Positions 1 to 10,202 of a DNA stretch of 32,000 nucleotides are shown here, one piece after another (the first letter of the stretch is position 1; each line of letters begins with the position of its first letter). Origin of the DNA: Candidatus Iainarchaeum sp. GTDB taxonomy: Archaea > Iainarchaeota > Iainarchaeia > Iainarchaeales > CSSED10-239. The position numbers were made by a program, and so were the translations under genes. The DNA lies in contig PWLL01000077.1 of NCBI GenBank assembly GCA_003559395.1, forward strand, positions 1-32,000. The letters run 5' to 3'. A model generated the notes under the pieces. The model was given only the letters and a program-made list of their open reading frames with translations, made no database searches and was not told the DNA's origin.

Positions 1-991
1 CATTTTTATAACTAAAAATTGTACCGTCTTCTAACAAACCTTTTCTTTTATAACTCATTCTCAAGAAATACCATTTTCTTAAAAGCTTGCCCATCAATCC
101 CAATTCTTCATTATTATAATATGCTTCAACTTGAAACAACTTGCCGCCGTGCCACCCAGTATTGTCTTTGTTTCTACTATGTAAGTTTGCTTGAATCATT
201 ATGTGTGGGTACAAGCTGCTGTAATCATTTGCTATTATTAAGTCATAAAAAGATATTTTTTTATCTGTTATGTTTTGTTTTGCGTGAAATTCTTTGTCCG
301 CAGGATAACTAACATAACCTCCTTCTATTTTCACTCTCTCGTTGTTATCTTTATTATAAATAGGTTCTAAATCTAACGCATAACAATCTGCTTTATAACC
401 AAACTTAGCCATAGTATCAGTTAAATATTTTTTCTTTTTAACATCATCTTCAGAAACAAAATCTTTAAACGCTTCAAAATATTTCTCTAACCACTCGTAT
501 AATTTTTTGGTTATTTCTATATCTCGTTTAGTATATTTTATTATTTTTTTTCTTTCTTCTGGAGTCCAAGTGTTTTTATTAAATATATTATAATCTATTT
601 TATCTTTTGCTTCTTCGTCTGTTACTAAATCTAAAAATCTTGTAATGTAATCAAGACTATAACTCATTAATTCTAATCCAAGCATTCCTTTTTTTGTCGT
701 CATAGAACCTGCTCTTTTTTTTATTATGTCGTAACAATCAACAAATAATTTATAGTCTAATTTTACTCCAAACTTTTCTATTATGGGGTTGTCAAACTCT
801 ATATTATTAAACCCAACCAATATTCTGTGTTCGTCGACAAGTTTTTGTATAAATTCTTTATCTGTATAAGGTATAATATAATGTTTATTTGTTTTATAAG
901 AATATGCACCAAATACTTTTAATTCATTATCATTAACATCTCCTGTCTTATTGCTAGTTTCTATATCATATATTAAAACATCTTCTTCCAT
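1..991 (-). CDS. polB: Family B DNA polymerase, N-terminal ~330 codons (partial; continues past the left edge)
   Basis: Absent from the ORF track because it has no stop in the window. The minus-strand frame from ATG at 991-989 reads MEEDVLIYDIETS (ExoI DxE), GFNNIEFDNPII (ExoII), YTKRDIEITKKLY (ExoIII YxxxD) and DYSSLYPHIM (motif A, DxxSLYP). The frame stays open to position 2. Confidence 0.85.
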   Translation of the reverse strand, partial: MEEDVLIYDIETSNKTGDVNDNELKVFGAYSYKTNKHYIIPYTDKEFIQKLVDEHRILVGFNNIEFDNPIIEKFGVKLDYKLFVDCYDIIKKRAGSMTTKKGMLGLELMSYSLDYITRFLDLVTDEEAKDKIDYNIFNKNTWTPEERKKIIKYTKRDIEITKKLYEWLEKYFEAFKDFVSEDDVKKKKYLTDTMAKFGYKADCYALDLEPIYNKDNNERVKIEGGYVSYPADKEFHAKQNITDKKISFYDLIIANDYSSLYPHIMIQANLHSRNKDNTGWHGGKLFQVEAYYNNEELGLMGKLLRKWYFLRMSYKRKGLLEDGTIFSYKN

Positions 992-993
992 TA

Positions 994-1227
994 TCAAATG
1001 TCTCCGTTTGATTTCATTATTGATAACATTCCACCAACTAATATAGTTATTATTCCTGTAGTATACATGACGCCGCTAATCCAATTAAACATATTAATAC
1101 CTATTAATGGTAACACAATTGGGGTACAAGTTATTATTATTCCTATTATTAATACTGGGTGAACCCCAGAAAAACTTGGTCGTTCATAATATTGTCCTTT
1201 TTTATTCAAAAAATTGTTGTTTGACAT
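994..1227 (-). CDS. Small membrane protein (two hydrophobic helices)
   Basis: ORF track. Hydrophobic runs VLIIGIIITCTPIVLPLIGI and GIITILVGGMLSI. The stop lies 3 nt from the polB ATG. Confidence 0.5.
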   Translation of the reverse strand: MSNNNFLNKKGQYYERPSFSGVHPVLIIGIIITCTPIVLPLIGINMFNWISGVMYTTGIITILVGGMLSIMKSNGDI

Positions 1228-1772
1228 TTTTCACCTAATTTGTATTTTTCTTTAATCCACTTGTATTGTTTGTATTTTTTTAACTTATTATTTTTTATTC
1301 CATTAATTAGTTTTCTCAAATGTTCTCTTAATCGTTCTTCTTTCATTCCCGGTTTCCAATCAAGAACTATTTTTAAAACTTTTTCCTCACTATCTATTAG
1401 TGGGTGCAACAAAGCTTTTATTAATAATGATGTGTAACTTTCAACGTTTTTTTCGTTGGTTATTTTGACTTTTGGAACTTCAACCGTTTTTGTTTTTTCT
1501 TTTGGTTTTTTTGTTGAAACTTTTTTTTCTTCTTTAATAACTTCTTGTATTAGTTGTTCGTTTGTTTTAGATTCTAATTGTTTTTCAAGTGTTTGATTCA
1601 TCAATCTTATTTTTTCTGTGTTTAATTCTTTATATTTTTCTTCTAATTCTTCCATCTGTTTATTAAAATCATTAGAACTTATACTGTCTTCTTTGTGATT
1701 TAAATCTATTTTTTCTTTTATTATTTGTTTAATTTTTTCATTAATTTCTTCAATCATACCAGTCACCCTCAA
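1206..1772 (-). CDS. Lys/Glu-rich coiled-coil protein, function unknown
   Basis: ORF track. Long charged heptad-like stretches. Overlaps both neighbours in operon fashion. Confidence 0.5.
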   Translation of the reverse strand: MRVTGMIEEINEKIKQIIKEKIDLNHKEDSISSNDFNKQMEELEEKYKELNTEKIRLMNQTLEKQLESKTNEQLIQEVIKEEKKVSTKKPKEKTKTVEVPKVKITNEKNVESYTSLLIKALLHPLIDSEEKVLKIVLDWKPGMKEERLREHLRKLINGIKNNKLKKYKQYKWIKEKYKLGEKCQTTIF

Positions 1773-2307
1773 ACGTTATATAAACATTAAAACCTTTAAG
1801 TTTTATTTTAAAAACATTTTCTTTAAAATTGTCATTAACTATGATATTTATTTTATCTTTTTTTATTGTTTGAACTATTGCAAAATTTTCTATTAAATCT
1901 AAATCATCTTCATCGTGCATTTCAAAAACATATTCAACATTTAATTTGTTTAATCGTTTCAAAACAGTATCTTCTAAACAATGTAAATTATGAGTTTGTA
2001 ATTTTACTATAAATTCTATGTTGTTTGCTGTTGTGAGAGGTTTTGTTTTACCATTAATAAATACTAACACTCTTGCCAAAGGATTGATTTTTTGTATCTT
2101 TTTACACAAGCCATTTACTTCTTTTTGTTGTGTTAATAATTCATCTCCTTTAATGGTTATTATTTGGTGTGGAGAAACATTTTTAATAATTGTTTCTATT
2201 GATTCTTGATAACCTTTTTGACTTAATTCTATTATATAAGATTGTTTACCTATCAAATGTTCTTTTAAAAAATTAACTTCTTCTCTACTTATTTTTAGCA
2301 TTATCAA
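1750..2307 (-). CDS. Hypothetical protein
   Basis: ORF track. 185 codons open in a very AT-rich background and co-oriented with overlapping neighbours. Confidence 0.5.
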   Translation of the reverse strand: MIMLKISREEVNFLKEHLIGKQSYIIELSQKGYQESIETIIKNVSPHQIITIKGDELLTQQKEVNGLCKKIQKINPLARVLVFINGKTKPLTTANNIEFIVKLQTHNLHCLEDTVLKRLNKLNVEYVFEMHDEDDLDLIENFAIVQTIKKDKINIIVNDNFKENVFKIKLKGFNVYITFEGDWYD

Positions 2308-2662
2308 AATCCTCTACTTCTTTTTTTAATTTTTCCAAATCAACTTTTTCTCTTTTTTTTATTTTACTTTTTTTCAAAAAATGTTTAATGTCTTCATCAG
2401 TTATATTTAATAATGTTAATAATTTATTAACAATTTTTAATGTTTTTTTTCCTTCATCTGTTAAATATATGTTATGTCTTGCACCAACTTTTTTTAATGT
2501 TATCCATTTTAATTTAATAAAAGATTTTTTTATGTCATGTAAATGTTTATAAGTTATTTTACTATCTAAAAAAATATCATATAAGCACCTACCATCTTTT
2601 TCTAAAAATTTTAAAAAAATCATATAGTCTGGAATAATTATTTGTTTGTGTTGTGTGTTCAT
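2285..2662 (-). CDS. Putative winged-helix DNA-binding protein
   Basis: ORF track. The ITYKHLHDIKKSFIKLKWITLKKVGARHNIYLTDEGKK segment has a helix-turn-helix plus beta-wing pattern. Motif-level guess only. Confidence 0.4.
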   Translation of the reverse strand: MNTQHKQIIIPDYMIFLKFLEKDGRCLYDIFLDSKITYKHLHDIKKSFIKLKWITLKKVGARHNIYLTDEGKKTLKIVNKLLTLLNITDEDIKHFLKKSKIKKREKVDLEKLKKEVEDFDNAKNK

Positions 2663-2732
2663 TTTTTAAAACCCCATTAATCCTTGTTTTGGTTTAGTTG
2701 TTGGTCATTCTTTATCACCTTGTTCGAGAAGA

Positions 2733-2752
2733 CTCTGCCCTTCAGGGCGGAG
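2733..2752 (+). repeat. Hairpin at the right end of the IscB insertion: CTCTGCCC-TTCA-GGGCGGAG
   Basis: 8-bp stem (one G:T pair) with a TTCA loop, read directly. Same core and orientation as the hairpin at 4186-4205. Confidence 0.6.
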
Positions 2753-2774
2753 ATGAATCGAACCTCGTTCTCGT

Positions 2775-4139
2775 TCATATTTGTAATCCTTTTCCATATT
2801 TTGTTACCTCTACACATTTAATATTTTTGTTAATTGTATTTCCTAAATCATCTGTTAATTTAACCCAAGTTCCTTTGTTAAACACACCTTTAGATGTATA
2901 AATTTTGTTGTCAAATTTAACTAAATCATTTGATTGTATTTTGTATCTCTGCCTTCTAATACTTGGTTTAAACCCTTTCCTGTTAAGTTGCAGGCAACGA
3001 TTGTTTCTTCTTATTTGCTTCAAATTACTGATTATACATCTTGTTTGATTACTTCCACCAGCTATGATGAATGCGTCGTTTACGTGTGATTTTTCTAATT
3101 CAAGTTTTTGTCTGTTTTCTTTTGTTATGTAACCAAACGTGTGTTCGTAATTGTTTTTATCAACTAATCTTGTCCAAACATTGTTCATAACGCTTGTGTC
3201 TTTGAAACTTTTTGGTTTAGTAAATTTGTGTTTGATTTTTCCTGAGTGAAAATCTTTGTGGCACTTTAAATGTAATGTAACTAAGTTATCGGGTCTATTA
3301 CTACCACCATCTTTTCTCTGAATAATATGGTGTGTTTCAAGTATTCCTCCTTGCTCTTTGCATATTTGACAAGTGTATTTATCTCTTGTAAATATGAATG
3401 CTCTAAGGTTATTATAACCGCTCATTTGACCTTGTTGATACTCGGCTCCTTCTATGTCTGCATTTTGTAGTTTCTGTGTGTCAAACTTTGCAACTTCCAC
3501 GACTATGTTGTTAATAGGTAACAACTTTGTTATTTTGTTAATTAATGTTTGGTGTGTGTCAAGTTTATGTTGTATACTTGGTGCTAGCCAACCTTCTTCT
3601 CGTTTTCGGTTGTTGAATCTTGGTTCTCGATACCATAACTTGTTACGTCTTCCTCTTCTATACATTGCTCGCTCTATTAGTTTTTCACTCACATTTTGTC
3701 TTAGTTCTAATTCACCACTCACCAATTCTTGTGTCTCAGTTATCGCTGAGAAACCAATCACTTTACTTCCTGCATCTATGCCGAGAGTGATTGGTTGCGT
3801 GGTTTCTCCTGTTGCAATAGTTAGTTGTATAGTGAATGGTTTTCTTTTGATAACTATTGCTTTTCCTTGTTTTAGTAATTTGTTTGCTTTTTGTTGTTTG
3901 CAAGGCATCAAAGGTTGCCCCTTGATGTTTTGCACATACACAATATCAGATACTCTCAAGTTCTGATTCCCTGTATGTTGGGAATGGTTCTCTTCGGAGT
4001 TGTTAGAAAAGGTTTTTAAGTCTTGCTCACTAAGAATTTCCTCTCTGTTTAAAGACAAGACCATAGAGCTACCGACTAGAGAAGTATCAGTAGGTATGTA
4101 TGTATTTCTCTTTCCTAACTTCTGCATTTTTGTTTCCAT
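2775..4139 (-). CDS. iscB: IscB, an OMEGA-family RNA-guided RuvC/HNH nuclease
   Basis: Motifs in order: PLMP domain VYVQNIKGQPLMPCKQQKANKLLKQGKAIVIKRKPFTIQL; RuvC-I LGIDAGSKVIGFSAI; Arg-rich bridge helix RAMYRRGRRNKLWYREPRFNNRKR; RuvC-II IVVEVAKFD; HNH CQICKEQGGILETHHIIQRKDGGSNRPDNLVTLHLKCHKDFH; RuvC-III HVNDAFIIAGG; beta-rich C-terminal tail. The conserved core starts near residue 61 (TTG at 3959 or GTG at 3941). The ATG at 4139 has an AGGAGG 5 nt upstream, so the true start is uncertain. Confidence 0.85.
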   Translation of the reverse strand: METKMQKLGKRNTYIPTDTSLVGSSMVLSLNREEILSEQDLKTFSNNSEENHSQHTGNQNLRVSDIVYVQNIKGQPLMPCKQQKANKLLKQGKAIVIKRKPFTIQLTIATGETTQPITLGIDAGSKVIGFSAITETQELVSGELELRQNVSEKLIERAMYRRGRRNKLWYREPRFNNRKREEGWLAPSIQHKLDTHQTLINKITKLLPINNIVVEVAKFDTQKLQNADIEGAEYQQGQMSGYNNLRAFIFTRDKYTCQICKEQGGILETHHIIQRKDGGSNRPDNLVTLHLKCHKDFHSGKIKHKFTKPKSFKDTSVMNNVWTRLVDKNNYEHTFGYITKENRQKLELEKSHVNDAFIIAGGSNQTRCIISNLKQIRRNNRCLQLNRKGFKPSIRRQRYKIQSNDLVKFDNKIYTSKGVFNKGTWVKLTDDLGNTINKNIKCVEVTKYGKGLQI

Positions 4140-4191
4140 CTTTGCCTCCTAATCAACCAATTGCTCTCAAACCTCACGGCTCAAGCCCCTT
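3960..4191 (-). ncRNA. Candidate omega-RNA scaffold for IscB (guide predicted from the flank at 4192 to about 4211)
   Basis: In known loci, IscB omega RNAs lie directly 5' of, or overlapping, the iscB start. My hand count gives about 41% G+C over 3961-4200, against about 20% for 4321-4380. Several stems are visible on the minus strand, e.g. ATTCCC-N8-GGGAAT and GTCTTG-N31-CAAGAC. No covariance model was run. Confidence 0.4.
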
Positions 4192-4673
4192 CCTTCAGGG
4201 AGGGGTGATTGACATGTTCGTAATTGGTCTATGTTCATATAATTTCTAGTCCAGTATTGTTTATCTATTCCATAAAAACTGAACCAATTAACTTTGTCTT
4301 TATCGATTTCTTTTAACAATGTTTGTTTCATTAAATTTATTTGTGTATCAGATAAGTTAAAATGTTTTTGTATTTTTTCGTATAAAAAAAAGTATCTATC
4401 TTGTTTGTCATCTTTTTTTGGATATTTAATAAAAGGTGTTTTGTTCAATTTTTTTCCATCAAAAAACAACAACGACCATGCAGCACTTAAATACACTTTA
4501 GGGGATGTGTAGAACACGAATTTGTTTAATACTCTTGCTTGCCGCACGGTTATGTTGTTCAAAGAAAGAAATCTTTGAATTACTACTGGTTGAATACAAC
4601 TATCGTCTAATTCAATAATCCATTTACTTGATGGATTAGTATACAAGTTTTTCAATATATCAAACACGTTCAT
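4167..4673 (-). CDS. Hypothetical protein, possibly a clamp-loader accessory subunit (T4 gp62-like); its 3' end is altered by the IscB insertion
   Basis: ORF track. It overlaps the stop of the RFC-like gene and follows the T4-like order clamp, loader, gp62. PVVIQRFLSLNNITVRQARVLNKF loosely resembles the gp62-family pattern as I remember it. The last 7 codons (RGLSREV) are read from inside the insertion. Confidence 0.4.
   Translation of the reverse strand: MNVFDILKNLYTNPSSKWIIELDDSCIQPVVIQRFLSLNNITVRQARVLNKFVFYTSPKVYLSAAWSLLFFDGKKLNKTPFIKYPKKDDKQDRYFFLYEKIQKHFNLSDTQINLMKQTLLKEIDKDKVNWFSFYGIDKQYWTRNYMNIDQLRTCQSPLPEGRGLSREV
4186..4205 (+). repeat. Hairpin at the left end of the IscB insertion: CCCCTTCC-TTCA-GGGAGGGG
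   Basis: 8-bp stem (one G:T pair) with a TTCA loop, read directly. It straddles the insertion boundary at 4191/4192. Confidence 0.6.
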
Positions 4674-5572
4674 TTTACCATTTCTATTAATGAAGTTGTG
4701 AAAATTATTATTGGTTCTCCTTCATTAAATTTTAAATCATTTGCACAAGTTACTTGAATCATTTTAACATTGTCTTCCAAACAAGATTTTAACCAAAAAA
4801 ATTTGTTCAAATTTCTAAAATCTATCTCGTGAGTAAAAACATATTCTTGCACAAATCGTCTATCTTTTTCTTTTATTTTGTCCCACAACATCTGATATTC
4901 GTCGTCAGAACTTTTTGCGTTTGTTTTTGTTACAGGTTTGTTATCTATTTTTAAATCTTGTAACACTTGCACACAATTTCTAATACTTGGATAATTTATA
5001 TCAACAATGTTTTGTAGTCCTTCTAAGTCATATTCTAAGTTTTCGTTAACACATATTTTCATTAAGTATTCTACTATTTCTTCTTTTTTTGGTTGATTGA
5101 ATTTTATTGTTGCACAACGACTTTTTAGTGCGTCACTTATTTTGTGGTAATAGTTACAAGAAATTATAAACAAAGCATTCTCGTGGTATATTTCCATCAA
5201 ACTTCTTAAAGCGTCTTGTGCGTCATTGGTTAATTTGTCTCCTTCATCAAAGAACACTATTCTTCTAACACCTTTTTTTGTGGATTGTGTTTTTACAAAT
5301 CCATTAACTTTATCTCTAATTGTTTCTATTTTTCTATCGTCAGAACCATTCAACATAAGTGCATCTGCACCTAATGTTTTAATAATAATTCGGGCAATTG
5401 ACGTTTTGCCCGTACCCGCCGTATCAGAATGAAGTATTAAATGTTGCATTGATTGTGGTTCTTGTAATCTATTAGCAATTTTATTTTTTACTTCTAATCC
5501 AACAAAGCTTTCTAATGTTTTTGGTCTATATTTTTCAATCCACATACTATTAATAGGGTCAAATTCTTTCAT
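4670..5572 (-). CDS. Clamp-loader AAA+ ATPase (RFC small subunit / gp44-like)
   Basis: WIEKYRPKTLESFVG (RFC box II), Walker A GTGKTS, Walker B FFDEGD, QDALRSLME, and the SRC motif in LKSRCATIKF. Confidence 0.85.
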   Translation of the reverse strand: MKEFDPINSMWIEKYRPKTLESFVGLEVKNKIANRLQEPQSMQHLILHSDTAGTGKTSIARIIIKTLGADALMLNGSDDRKIETIRDKVNGFVKTQSTKKGVRRIVFFDEGDKLTNDAQDALRSLMEIYHENALFIISCNYYHKISDALKSRCATIKFNQPKKEEIVEYLMKICVNENLEYDLEGLQNIVDINYPSIRNCVQVLQDLKIDNKPVTKTNAKSSDDEYQMLWDKIKEKDRRFVQEYVFTHEIDFRNLNKFFWLKSCLEDNVKMIQVTCANDLKFNEGEPIIIFTTSLIEMVK

Positions 5573-5592
5573 CTTATTTACCTAAAAAAATT

Positions 5593-5805
5593 TTAATCTT
5601 CGTCAGAAAAATTTATTTCTTGCACTACTAAAGTATATAATACAACATCTAAATTATGTTCGTCTTTATACACTGTTGTTGTTAGTTGAACTTTTGTTGG
5701 TTCTTTACCAAAAGATTCTCTATATTCTTGTTGTAATCTTTCGTAATCAGTATCTTCTAGTATATATAAATTGTTTGTGTAATTCATTTTTTTAGTCCTC
5801 CGCAT
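5593..5805 (-). CDS. Hypothetical small protein
   Basis: ORF track. Lies between the clamp and clamp-loader genes and overlaps the clamp stop. Confidence 0.45.
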   Translation of the reverse strand: MRRTKKMNYTNNLYILEDTDYERLQQEYRESFGKEPTKVQLTTTVYKDEHNLDVVLYTLVVQEINFSDED

Positions 5806-6490
5806 CTATTCTTGGTGCTAATAAAAATTGTATTTTATATTTGTCGTTTTCAATAACTGCTTTTATTAAATAATCTGGTTTTGCTTCAAACGCTATTGTG
5901 TCGTCAATACTTTTAAACATTTTAACAAATGGTTCTCCAAACTTTAATTTTACTCCACCTTTAGTTCCTTCGCTTTTAATATTTCTTGTAAATTTGTATT
6001 TTCCATCGTTAGATAATATTAATCCATTTTCAACAGTTTCTATTCTTACCAAAATATCTTTGTTAAGTTGTGTGTCTTGAATAAAGTCTATTAATTCTTT
6101 TCCGTTTACATTAAAACTTGTTGTAAATTCTTGTAGTTTTGGAACATCTGGCATTGGTGTGATAAATCTTTCGTCGACCAATTCAAGTTTTAGTTCTTTG
6201 GAATTTGTTTTTGCTGTTAGTAAATTTCCTTCAACATTAAATTCTATTTCTTTTTCTAATCTGTTAAACACTTGTACTAAAACAGATAATTCGTCCACAC
6301 CCACTTTTCCCAATGCAACATAATCAACAAAATTTTCTTTTTTTAATGTTGCATGAACCATACTGGTTGCATCTGCTGTTACTGCTTCAACATATAAACC
6401 TTTATCTGTAAAGTCTAAAAGACATTGGTCTACTTGTTCCATTCTTATTTTTTTCAAAAAATCTATTAACACATTTTTTTCTATTTTCAT
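5792..6490 (-). CDS. PCNA-like sliding clamp
   Basis: 232 aa, the typical clamp size. The C-terminal YKIQFLLAPRIDAED resembles the PCNA C-terminus (YYLAPKIEDEE type). Sits next to the clamp loader. Confidence 0.7.
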   Translation of the reverse strand: MKIEKNVLIDFLKKIRMEQVDQCLLDFTDKGLYVEAVTADATSMVHATLKKENFVDYVALGKVGVDELSVLVQVFNRLEKEIEFNVEGNLLTAKTNSKELKLELVDERFITPMPDVPKLQEFTTSFNVNGKELIDFIQDTQLNKDILVRIETVENGLILSNDGKYKFTRNIKSEGTKGGVKLKFGEPFVKMFKSIDDTIAFEAKPDYLIKAVIENDKYKIQFLLAPRIDAED

Positions 6491-6648
6491 TTTTTACCTC
6501 GTTGTTTTTTTGTTGTTATGACTTCTTTTATATCTAATTCTTTCTTCATTATAGTTCTCATTTTTTCCAATATTTGTTTTTTGTTTGGCAAAAATTTTGT
6601 TGTATAATCTTCATCATTTAGATACATTGTTACTTGTATGTTTGGCAT
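6487..6648 (-). CDS. Small protein (53 aa), possibly ribbon-helix-helix
   Basis: Below the ORF-track size cut-off. ATG at 6648 has GGAGG about 8 nt upstream. Reads MPNIQVTMYLNDEDYTTKFLPNKKQILEKMRTIMKKELDIKEV... The TGA stop overlaps the clamp ATG (ATGA). It is the first gene after the promoter box at 6691-6698. Confidence 0.4.
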   Translation of the reverse strand: MPNIQVTMYLNDEDYTTKFLPNKKQILEKMRTIMKKELDIKEVITTKKQRGKK

Positions 6649-6674
6649 TTTTTGTTCCTCCGTATTCTTTAATT

Positions 6675-6705
6675 AACTAAACATAACTACTATATAAATG
6701 TTTTG
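6675..6705 (-). promoter_or_regulatory. BRE/TATA-like promoter box (minus strand CAAAACATTTATATAGTAGTTATG)
   Basis: Member of the conserved motif family found at 10054-10107, 14083-14136, 19590-19610 and 20641-20665. The TATA element (6698 to 6691) overlaps the stop codon of the upstream helicase gene. Confidence 0.55.
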
Positions 6706-8933
6706 TTTTTTGTTACCTCGTGACCCTCTTTTTTAAAACCTCTAATTCTTCCAATACTTGAAAGTTTGAAAAAAACAATATTATCAAAAAAATCATAATA
6801 TATTGCATTGTCTTTGCTGTCATGTGTTCTTAATGCTCTTCCCAGTGTTTGAATGCTAGTTCTTTCAAGTTTATGAGCACTTGCATTAATTACTATGTTT
6901 AATCTAGGTATATCAATTCCTTCCTCAAAAATACTTATAGTGGATATTAATATTTTTTGTGAACCATCAGTAAAGTCTTCAAACATTTGTTCTCTTTTTT
7001 TATCACTAATTTTTCCGTGCAAATACTTACTATTAGGAATTAGTTGTTCCAATAACTCGCCGTGTTTAACATATTTAACTAATATTAATATTGTTTTATT
7101 AGAATGATTTTCACATAATTGTTTTATTGTTTCGTTTCTTTTAGTATTATTTATTATACATTCGTCAAAAAAAATTCTGTATTTAATGCCGTCTTTTAAG
7201 TTATCAACTAAGTCACCATAAGCTTTAAGTGTTTTATCGACAAATTTGTTTTGTTCAGATAATTTTTTATCAATTTCTTCTAATATTAACTCATTACATT
7301 TATTCTCCATTAACTCTAATTCTTCTTTGGTGTTTACGTCTGTTAAAAATATTATTTCTGGTTTAACTAAAAACCCTTTAGTTATTAATTCTTGTCCTTT
7401 TAAAGAATAAATAACTTCCCCTAATATTGATGTTACTCTCAAATCACAACCTTGATTATTTTTTGCAGTTGCACTAACACCTAATCTGTACTCTATGTTT
7501 TTTAATAATTTGGATAAAGTGATAAATCTTGGGCTGTGAGTTTTATGACATTCATCTACTATAAACACTCTAATTGTTTTAAAATAATCTTCTAATTCAT
7601 CTTTATATTTTATTAACGATTGTATAGTGGCAATAGTAATATTTTCTATTTGTTTGTTGCCCATTCCTATTATGCCAATAGGTGTTCCTAGTTCTGTTTC
7701 AAACTCTTTTTTTGTTTGTGTTAATAATCTTTTTTTATCTACTACGAATAATGTTTTTAATCCTAATCTTCTAACAATTTCTATTGTTATTAATGTTTTG
7801 CCTGCACCTGTTGATAATTCTAAAATGCCGTTGTTTAAACCTTTTTTATTAATGTATGTGTCTACCGCTTGTATTTGATAATCTCTTAATTCTTTACCAC
7901 TTAATAGTTTTTGTGGCATGTCTATTTTTGTTTCATCAAAACATCTATTATCTTGTAATTTTATAATAGGTGTTTTATTAATACTTCTTGCATAATTATG
8001 AATGGTTTCTACTAATGAATCAACTAAACCTATACTAATGTTTTTAAATTTTTTATTCCACAAACATTTTTTTGTGTTCATATTAGGATATCTTTTTTTT
8101 AAAAAAATTGCACTTTGATTTTCATAAGTATATTTATTAAATAATAATTCATTTAATTCTTCTGAAAAATCTCCTTTAACAAAAACTTCTCCACCATATA
8201 TATTTAATAAAAAATTCATTGTTGTTTCAGGATTTTGTTCTTCAACATCCCATAAATGTTTGTAAGGACAAAAAAAATATCCTTTATTAAATGGTGGCAA
8301 TTTGTCTGGGTTGTTTAAATAATAATGAATTTTTTCCAAAGTTTTTTTGTGGTATTGTTCTGCGTTTTTTATATCTTGTATTGTTGGAATAATTATCATA
8401 ACACTATTTTCGTAACGCAAATAACACACTTTTATTTCTTTAAGTAATATATTGTATTTTCTATAATATTGCCAAACATAATATTTCATTTGAACGGTGT
8501 ATTCTAACTTATTATGTTCATTCATTTGAGAAGTTTTCCAATCACACATAAAATGTGTTTCAGTATTAACACCATCTAAATATGATACGCAATCAGGAAA
8601 AAATATTTTTAGTTCTGTGTGAGTTAAATCAAAGTTTAATTTTATTCCGTTAAGAATCATTTCCCAAGTTAACTCTTTTTCATGTGCTAATTTTGTTTCA
8701 TCTAATTTAAACTTAGTCCATAATTGTTCAAACTGCTCTGCTATTATTGATTGTTCTGTTTGTTTATTTTTATAAAATGTTTCCAAACACTCGTGAACAA
8801 CTGTTCCTCTGTTGGCATAACACATATCGCTTACACCAGGAATTTTTTGTATGTATTGCATATACCAAGTTCTCGGACATTGCCAAAACAAATTCATTTG
8901 TGAAAATGACAATGGTCTATTGTATGTTTTCAT
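6690..8933 (-). CDS. Fusion of a Cas4-like PD-(D/E)xK nuclease and an SF2 (DExH) helicase
   Basis: N-terminal part: QCPRTWYMQY, GTVVHECLE, FMCDWKTS, QMKYYVWQY, FFCPYKHLW (Cas4/RecB-nuclease pattern with Cys ligands). C-terminal part: helicase motifs LSTGAGKTL (I), VDECHK (II), SATAKN (III), QTLGRALRT (VI). Confidence 0.8.
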   Translation of the reverse strand: MKTYNRPLSFSQMNLFWQCPRTWYMQYIQKIPGVSDMCYANRGTVVHECLETFYKNKQTEQSIIAEQFEQLWTKFKLDETKLAHEKELTWEMILNGIKLNFDLTHTELKIFFPDCVSYLDGVNTETHFMCDWKTSQMNEHNKLEYTVQMKYYVWQYYRKYNILLKEIKVCYLRYENSVMIIIPTIQDIKNAEQYHKKTLEKIHYYLNNPDKLPPFNKGYFFCPYKHLWDVEEQNPETTMNFLLNIYGGEVFVKGDFSEELNELLFNKYTYENQSAIFLKKRYPNMNTKKCLWNKKFKNISIGLVDSLVETIHNYARSINKTPIIKLQDNRCFDETKIDMPQKLLSGKELRDYQIQAVDTYINKKGLNNGILELSTGAGKTLITIEIVRRLGLKTLFVVDKKRLLTQTKKEFETELGTPIGIIGMGNKQIENITIATIQSLIKYKDELEDYFKTIRVFIVDECHKTHSPRFITLSKLLKNIEYRLGVSATAKNNQGCDLRVTSILGEVIYSLKGQELITKGFLVKPEIIFLTDVNTKEELELMENKCNELILEEIDKKLSEQNKFVDKTLKAYGDLVDNLKDGIKYRIFFDECIINNTKRNETIKQLCENHSNKTILILVKYVKHGELLEQLIPNSKYLHGKISDKKREQMFEDFTDGSQKILISTISIFEEGIDIPRLNIVINASAHKLERTSIQTLGRALRTHDSKDNAIYYDFFDNIVFFKLSSIGRIRGFKKEGHEVTKNKTFI

Positions 8934-8943
8934 TAAAGATTAA

Positions 8944-9135
8944 TCACCCCAGCAAAACCTCTCGTAAATCTTCGATAAATATTGTTTTATGTGTGTTTTT
9001 TAAAGTGTTAATTTTCTTTTTTAAGTCACTAATTTTAATTACTTCTTCTGGTGCAAACACCACACCATTTATAATGGTGTTTTTTCTTTTACTTTCAAGT
9101 TTTCTAAAATCAACAAACCATTTATTCATTTTCAT
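8944..9135 (-). CDS. Hypothetical small protein
   Basis: ORF track. GAGGA lies upstream of the second ATG. Confidence 0.45.
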   Translation of the reverse strand: MKMNKWFVDFRKLESKRKNTIINGVVFAPEEVIKISDLKKKINTLKNTHKTIFIEDLREVLLG

Positions 9136-10172: not shown

Positions 10173-10202
10173 CCTCTCCCTGAAGGAAGGATACTTCTCA
10201 GA
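10173..10202 (+). repeat. Third member of the CCCTGAAGG hairpin family
   Basis: CCTCTCCCTGAAGGAAGG matches the minus-strand left junction of the IscB insertion (CCCCTCCCTGAAGGAAGG) at 17/18 positions. It then forms CTGA(AG)GAAG-GATA-CTTCTCAG. Lies 3' of the glycosyltransferase operon. Confidence 0.45.

Follow-up and report, generated by a model that had tools for sequence, protein, structure and literature searches.

How should one read the G+C-rich DNA that immediately precedes the conserved core of an IscB nuclease: as the scaffold of a guide RNA, as codons of an N-terminal extension, or as both? Omega RNAs are regarded as leaders that go untranslated, and IscB open reading frames are routinely trimmed to the PLMP domain by annotators and engineers. 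The question is raised by a locus on the minus strand of the window, a 32,000-nt stretch of contig PWLL01000077.1 from the archaeal genome of a Candidatus Iainarchaeum sp. (0.91-Mb assembly). An earlier note, made from the letters of this DNA, had singled out positions 3960–4191 and put their G+C content, counted by hand, at 41%, rising to 52% at 4141–4200; the computed values are 40.1% and 51.7%, as compared with 27.0% across the window as a whole and 33.2% within the IscB core. We regard it as secure that the block is the gene for an omega RNA of the HEARO family, belonging to an IscB transposon nuclease, and we assign a probability of roughly 0.6 to the reading that the same block may also be translated in frame into IscB from an internal ATG.

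The coding sequence, and the codons at which its translation might begin, are as follows.

2775–4139, minus strand: annotated IscB open reading frame of 454 amino acids, with RRXRR and HNH domains; the core begins near residue 61, at the TTG.
4137–4139, minus strand: ATG in an omega-RNA hairpin loop after the pseudoknot strand; the annotated start, kept in 7 of 7 members of its own subclade.
4125–4127, minus strand: second in-frame ATG (ATGCAG) in the 3′ arm of a hairpin stem; a start position conserved in most other subclades.
3957–3959, minus strand: TTG within the conserved motif cTTGAGAGTa, located where IscB proteins canonically start.

The frame is open from the ATG at 4139, as the earlier note had stated, and the core does lie about 60 codons farther on: the Pfam RRXRR family covers residues 67–237 (E = 4e-66), the HNH family covers residues 257–299 (E = 1.8e-10), and the PLMP motif occupies residues 76–79. 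The protein carries the IscB motifs GIDAGS, VEVAKFD, YRRGRRN, CxxC..HH and HVNDAF, and the motifs of the catalytic architecture (PLMP, a split RuvC with D/E/H/D, an Arg-rich bridge helix and an inserted HNH) were invariant in 58 relatives. It matches solved IscBs, among them OgeuIscB (7xht, E = 8e-42), in which PLMP corresponds to residues 14–17, so that the protein starts 13 residues before it (PMC9640706), within the 10–15 residues that the note had given as usual. That PLMP stands at 76–79 here and at 14–17 in OgeuIscB argues that the roughly 60 extra codons are real. The protein resembles canonical IscB (OgeuIscB, GstIscB) in its PLMP, RuvC, bridge-helix (RRXRR) and HNH architecture; it differs in having some 60 additional N-terminal residues without predicted structure, the canonical proteins starting 13 residues before PLMP. 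Indeed, an AF2 model built from a 58-sequence alignment had a confident core (pTM 0.73) and a pLDDT below 50 for residues 1–63. Both the TTG at 3959 and a GTG at 3941 are in the IscB frame, the former 15 codons ahead of PLMP and six ahead of the first β-strand (VYVQN).

The identity of the RNA is established by its match to a known family and by covariation. Its parts are these.

3982–4213, minus strand: omega-RNA scaffold, from a full-length RF02033 match and covariation.
3960–3985, minus strand: 3′ continuation of the omega RNA past the Rfam model, consisting of a terminal hairpin and a 6-nt linker to the TTG, from the MFE fold.
4145–4150, minus strand: AGGAGG, the 5′ strand of the HEARO pseudoknot and a Shine–Dalgarno (SD)-like box 5 nt before the ATG at 4139.
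3996–3999, minus strand: CUCC, the 3′ strand of the pseudoknot, from the cmscan structure line (columns 317–320, which pair with 116–119).

With cmscan, positions 3982–4213 of the minus strand matched HEARO (Rfam RF02033) along the entire model (1–211 of 211) with a score of 111.8 bits (E = 1.2e-23), above the gathering score of 83, and in an alignment of 50 relatives compensatory double changes were found in 43 of the 52 consensus pairs, those of the pseudoknot included. The scaffold proposed in the earlier note is thereby upheld, as are the stems that it had made out by eye: the minus strand of 3960–4213 (254 nt) has a minimum free energy of −68.9 kcal/mol (z = −2.67), and 0 of 200 shuffled sequences folded as well. 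The terminal hairpin (ATTCCC-N8-GGGAAT, 3985–3966 on the minus strand) lies outside the Rfam model, and its counterpart in relatives covaries (alignment columns 334–336/359–361). A hairpin beyond the end of the model fits the statement of Meers et al. that RF02033 is without 3′ elements (PMC10055086). The scaffold sits directly 5′ of the IscB core on the same strand, the one ending at about 3960 and the other starting at 3959. HEARO is also present in all six IMG/VR relatives, at 96–134 bits. In position, strand, helices and pseudoknot the RNA is like the HEARO/IscB omega RNA known from OgeuIscB (RF02033; PDB 7xht/7utn), and its predicted role is that of a stable, IscB-binding guide for DNA cleavage.

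The RNA and the enzyme together make up an IscB element, non-autonomous and about 1.5 kb long, that runs from 4213 to about 2716 and contains no tnpA. Outside the RNA and the coding sequence, its landmarks are the following.

4214–4229, minus strand: putative guide, GACCAATTACGAACAT, 16 nt, adjoining the 5′ end of the scaffold; its length is assumed.
2716–2774, minus strand: nested hairpins that make up the 3′ end of the element; the end at 2716 is predicted from copy comparison and an RWTAAR box.
2711–2715, minus strand: ATAAA, candidate TAM or insertion-site motif, just outside the element.
4167–4673, minus strand: host (virus-like) gene of 168 amino acids with no Pfam family, whose last 15 codons and stop come from the omega RNA.

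Similarity between the window and a sister copy of the element begins exactly at GTCAAT (4213), and this onset, together with the start of the HEARO model, sets the boundary at 4213/4214, which is 22 nt farther out than the boundary of 4191 drawn in the earlier note. At the opposite end we found the hairpins CGAGAA..TTCTCG (2773–2725) and CTCCGCCC-TGAA-GGGCAGAG (about 2753–2734); the loop motif CCCTGAAGG is common to the 3′ end hairpin and to the first hairpin of the omega RNA, at the two ends of the element. An RWTAAR box follows the end hairpin in the 10 elements compared, those of the window and the sister copy and eight other related ones. In a related element of which three copies were available (L012, L013 and L014), the copies diverge right after GTTAAA; this divergence point and the box place the end at 2716 and the candidate TAM, ATAAA, at 2715–2711. 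Searches of 60 relatives and of IMG/VR turned up neither a homologue of the flanking gene (4214–4673) nor an empty site, and with 0 mismatches allowed the guide sequence occurs just once in the genome, so that element ends and TAM are placed from copy comparison only. An empty site is predicted to let the host gene end in RTYKE and a stop.

Omega-RNA guides lie past the transposon end (PMC10055086), and a guide 5′ of the scaffold and beyond the end of the element would be expected here as for the omega RNA of OgeuIscB. The omega RNA of the window would then take a guide of about 16 nt from the flanking host gene (4214–4229), the final codons of which are the guide sequence, and would direct IscB to its own insertion site without the element, namely the guide sequence with ATAAA after it. 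An exact repeat of 12 nt, TGTTCGTAATTG, occurs at 3142–3153 and at 4215–4226, placing 12 of the 16 putative guide bases inside iscB; we rejected 3142–3153 as a self-target because it has no adjacent TAM-like ATAAA and the match is at about chance level. Inside the host gene, about 30 nt upstream of the scaffold, lies an A/T box (AAATTATATGA, 4235–4245, minus strand) whose spacing could suit an archaeal TATA box that starts a transcript with a guide of about 12–16 nt, and which could also be due to chance in DNA of 27% G+C.

The assembly holds two IscB copies, both on the contig of the window. The sister element (32838–34262, plus strand; locus L008, 1501–2994) lies about 840 nt past the end of the window, with a core 62% identical, a HEARO score of 126 bits and a guide flank of its own. 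There, too, the open reading frame has its start within the omega RNA; at the other end it continues into the 3′ end hairpin. The sister element likewise occupies the last codons of the gene upstream. Elsewhere in the window, CCTCTCCCTGAAGGAAGG at 10173–10190 (plus strand) closely resembles both the first omega-RNA hairpin (4206–4187) and the hairpin of the other end; a solo end, a remnant and a hairpin motif shared with the host or a virus are the candidate explanations. Positions 1–9000 (minus strand) encode a family-B polymerase fragment, an RFC-like clamp loader, a PCNA-like clamp and a nuclease–helicase fusion, that is, a virus-like replication module. This module, and the absence of the flanking genes from 60 relatives, suggest that the contig may be a virus or other mobile element rather than chromosome. 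A search of the INPHARED phage collection returned only distant HNH/IscB-like matches, in Clostridium phages.

That the block is an omega RNA leaves two ways to view the frame that runs through it. The first is that translation of IscB begins at an ATG inside the omega RNA, at 4139 or at 4127. The second, which had also been raised in the earlier note, is that the RNA is only an RNA, IscB starting at the TTG at 3959 (or the GTG at 3941), and that the long open reading frame is an annotation artefact, a stop-free frame passively inherited; we consider this rather unlikely, although the full HEARO match is just what it would lead one to expect, and so are the canonical IscB N-terminus 13 residues before PLMP and the location of the TTG within a conserved motif. 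We compared 160 related loci gathered from IMG/VR, JGI metagenomes and GTDB genomes, in which the omega RNA was located with an nhmmer profile. A full-length omega RNA was present in 101 distinct loci, and in 71 of these, the sister copy among them, the IscB frame was open from an in-frame ATG located 57–66 codons upstream of the first strand of the core; a further 2–4 loci were open with a TTG or GTG in place of that ATG. The other two frames of the same 195 nt contained on average 4.4 and 4.8 stops and were never open. Moreover, the distance from the ATG to the core took ten different values between 171 and 198 nt, all of them in phase, while the spacing between the ATG and the invariant GATTAG junction was unconstrained modulo 3 (32, 23 and 16 loci per class). 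Ten distinct lengths that all keep phase speak against a frame that is open by inheritance alone. (A gap-phase test on pairwise nucleotide alignments was uninformative, since even in the IscB core most gap lengths were not divisible by 3; because this gap pattern is an alignment artefact at 60–70% identity, the distinct ATG-to-core lengths were used instead.)

Conservation of the RNA might by itself keep a frame free of stops. We therefore resampled each alignment column among the 71 open sequences, a procedure that retains conservation at the RNA level. In frame 0 the resampled sequences carried a mean of 1.24 stops and 28% of them were open, as compared with 0 stops in the real sequences, whereas in frames 1 and 2 the real and resampled values were nearly the same (4.82 versus 4.94 and 4.45 versus 4.57); these statistics overstate independence, because the open group was defined by its openness and the loci are related by descent. 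Even so, columns drawn from stop-free sequences still give stops upon resampling, which an RNA-only account does not readily explain.

The start codon itself behaves in a manner that is difficult to attribute to RNA structure alone. In 45 of the 71 open-frame loci the ATG is part of a stem (GCAU..AUGC); where that stem reads instead GUUG..CAAC or GACC..GGUA, an in-frame ATG is found in the loop, so that the ATG moves from stem to loop upon a change of the stem. The window carries both the loop ATG at 4139 and the stem ATG at 4127. In open-frame loci, the median strength of the SD sequence is weak before the TTG (−4.0 kcal/mol) and stronger before the upstream ATG (−6.8 kcal/mol). The lack of a strong SD before the TTG in these loci likewise counts against exclusive use of the TTG.

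The peptide that would be made from the block shows no sign of selection on its sequence. In a substitution test on 34 phylogenetically independent pairs, changes in the extension fell at codon positions 1, 2 and 3 in the numbers 157/215/168, that is, with no codon-position bias, and the synonymous fraction was 0.24, as compared with 0.21 and 0.27 in the other frames. In the IscB core the corresponding counts were 402/249/1214 and the synonymous fraction was 0.64. The first 60 residues, whose conservation as protein the earlier note had set against an RNA role, thus lack any excess of synonymous changes. Without such an excess, the likeness among N-terminal peptides is a by-product of RNA conservation, and conserved peptide motifs such as IPTDTSLV read as a translated HEARO hairpin. 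The lack of synonymous excess, and the predicted disorder of the extension, are what an RNA-only account would predict; for our preferred reading they mean, together with the absence of codon-position bias, that selection appears to act on the openness of the frame and on the start codon, and not on the sequence of the peptide.

The AGGAGG 5 nt before the ATG at 4139, which the earlier note had taken for a strong SD sequence, does have that spacing, and the 16S rRNA of the host ends in GGATCACCTCCT and carries CCUCC. Its primary role, however, is that of a pseudoknot strand, and as an SD sequence the box is not conserved. In the cmscan structure GGAG (4146–4149) pairs with CUCC (3996–3999), and among relatives the strands occur as GGAGG/CUCC, GAGAG/UCUC (the sister copy), GGGAG/CUCCC, GGUGG/CCACC, GAUGG/CAUC, GGAAG/UUCC and a GCC/GGC type, so that the pseudoknot columns show GC, AU, CG and UA pairs. 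Because the two strands covary, we regard the AGGAGG as primarily structural, with its SD-likeness varying by member: the sister copy has AGAGAG in its place, and L010 has GAUGG. The pseudoknot thus accounts for the box on an RNA-only reading as well.

Since the SD-like box is itself the 5′ strand of the pseudoknot, the guide RNA, folded or bound by IscB, and the translatable mRNA leader are probably alternative states. A stronger version of this idea would be an autoregulatory switch, in which omega RNA and IscB mRNA leader are mutually exclusive and the nuclease shuts off its own synthesis. The folded scaffold, bound by IscB, would hide the SD-like box in the pseudoknot and the ATG in its hairpin; ribosomes initiating at the internal ATG would melt the guide RNA; and the frame would be kept open solely so that the internal start reaches the enzyme. 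Such an arrangement would provide built-in dosage control of an RNA-guided nuclease borne by a transposon or a virus. The hiding of box and ATG is suggested by the anatomy of the RNA, and we hold the switch to be unlikely. A leader of this kind is known from E. coli rpsO, in which a pseudoknot that sequesters the SD is bound by the gene product, S15 (PMC3985624). The resemblance is one of analogy only and consists in an SD-like strand within a pseudoknot to which the gene's own product would be expected to bind; the SD-like sequence here differs in not being conserved in all members, and binding and repression would be predicted from the analogy only.

In a tree of the IscB core, the open-frame state takes up a single clade (67 of 91 rows, SH-aLRT 90) within which core identity falls to about 45%, and the persistence of openness across a clade of this depth is a further point against an inherited artefact. 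The clade is largely archaeal and contains Asgard groups, Methanoperedens, Methanobacteriota, Thermoplasmata, one Nanoarchaeota MAG and some bacterial MAGs, many of the rows being unlabelled metagenome contigs. In all of the outgroups (Bacillota and others) a canonical ATG lies 1–4 codons ahead of the core, and the DNA farther upstream contains several stops. A derived Asgard subclade (Borrarchaeota type) has an unchanged omega-RNA geometry and an internal open reading frame shifted to +1. Its loci (L036, L101, L078, L096 and others, from Asgard MAGs) have a separate open reading frame of about 62 codons within the omega RNA. The shifted frame ends at a TGA that overlaps the TTG or ATG start of IscB (TTGA/ATGA; cTTGAgagt), and AAGGAGG lies 9 nt upstream of that start; from its sequence, the arrangement looks like translational coupling. 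In these out-of-frame loci the SD before the TTG has a strength of −10 kcal/mol, so that SD strength is complementary between the open-frame and the shifted arrangements.

The TTG is the only possible start in this subclade, and it is thus demonstrably used there, as the RNA-only reading would have it for the window. With the upstream frame out of phase, the tail must be dispensable for IscB function in these Asgard loci. The former frame of the subclade still holds only 1 stop, which indicates that RNA conservation alone slows decay and to that extent favors a passive origin of openness elsewhere. It is very unlikely, in our view, that the frame within the omega RNA is translated to unwind the scaffold, deliver ribosomes or sense folding, the tail being a by-product and the functional enzyme perhaps a short form made by re-initiation or processing: the Asgard upstream open reading frame with its TGA overlapping the TTG is a classical coupling arrangement and the peptide is free of amino-acid constraint, but the TTGA overlap arises automatically from a +1 shift of the conserved motif, and the upstream frame is broken midway in one subgroup (L077, L074, L110 and L113).

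Taken together, the patterns of open frames, start codons and phylogeny make ribosomes that start inside the omega RNA the most economical account, and bear out, as far as sequence comparison can, the suggestion of the earlier note that the region is both RNA and peptide: frame and in-frame ATG are conserved across a deep clade. On this dual-use reading, translation would begin at the ATG at 4139 or 4127, reading would continue in frame across the entire scaffold into the PLMP domain, and the product would gain a disordered N-terminal tail of about 60 residues whose sequence is set by the RNA. Use of the ATG, synthesis of the tail, the length of the guide, the TAM and any switch are what we infer from these comparisons.

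Omega RNAs have been described as lying in the 5′ UTR or the upstream intergenic region, and overlap between open reading frame and omega RNA has been mentioned only as an annotation tolerance (PMC9755519, PMC10055086 and PMC13565253). Unlike the omega RNAs so described, about 75% of the scaffold here lies inside a conserved IscB frame with an internal ATG that is kept (about 90 related loci). We found no description of a conserved frame through an omega RNA in the literature searched, which did not include the two founding papers; the locus is accordingly best seen as a variant, the RNA family being already known and the conserved overlap one that we did not find described in those papers. 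The nearest parallel is the omega RNA (reRNA) of TnpB, which overlaps the 3′ end of tnpB (PMC10055086). In both cases a scaffold and the coding sequence of a nuclease share DNA on the same strand, for TnpB in an element of the IS200/IS605 type, to which the IscB element of the window may also belong. The reRNA, however, shares C-terminal codons and has its guide 3′, whereas in the window the shared codons are N-terminal and the guide is 5′, and only here does the overlap include a start codon and an SD-like box.

If the frame is not translated, the locus is a well-behaved new member of the HEARO family on an archaeal virus-like contig. If the dual-use reading is true, automated trimming of IscB open reading frames cuts off a real start, and expression of the nuclease may be coupled to the folding of its own guide, a point of relevance to heterologous use. 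The tail would then be a natural case of a translated peptide that is fully dictated by the constraints of RNA structure.
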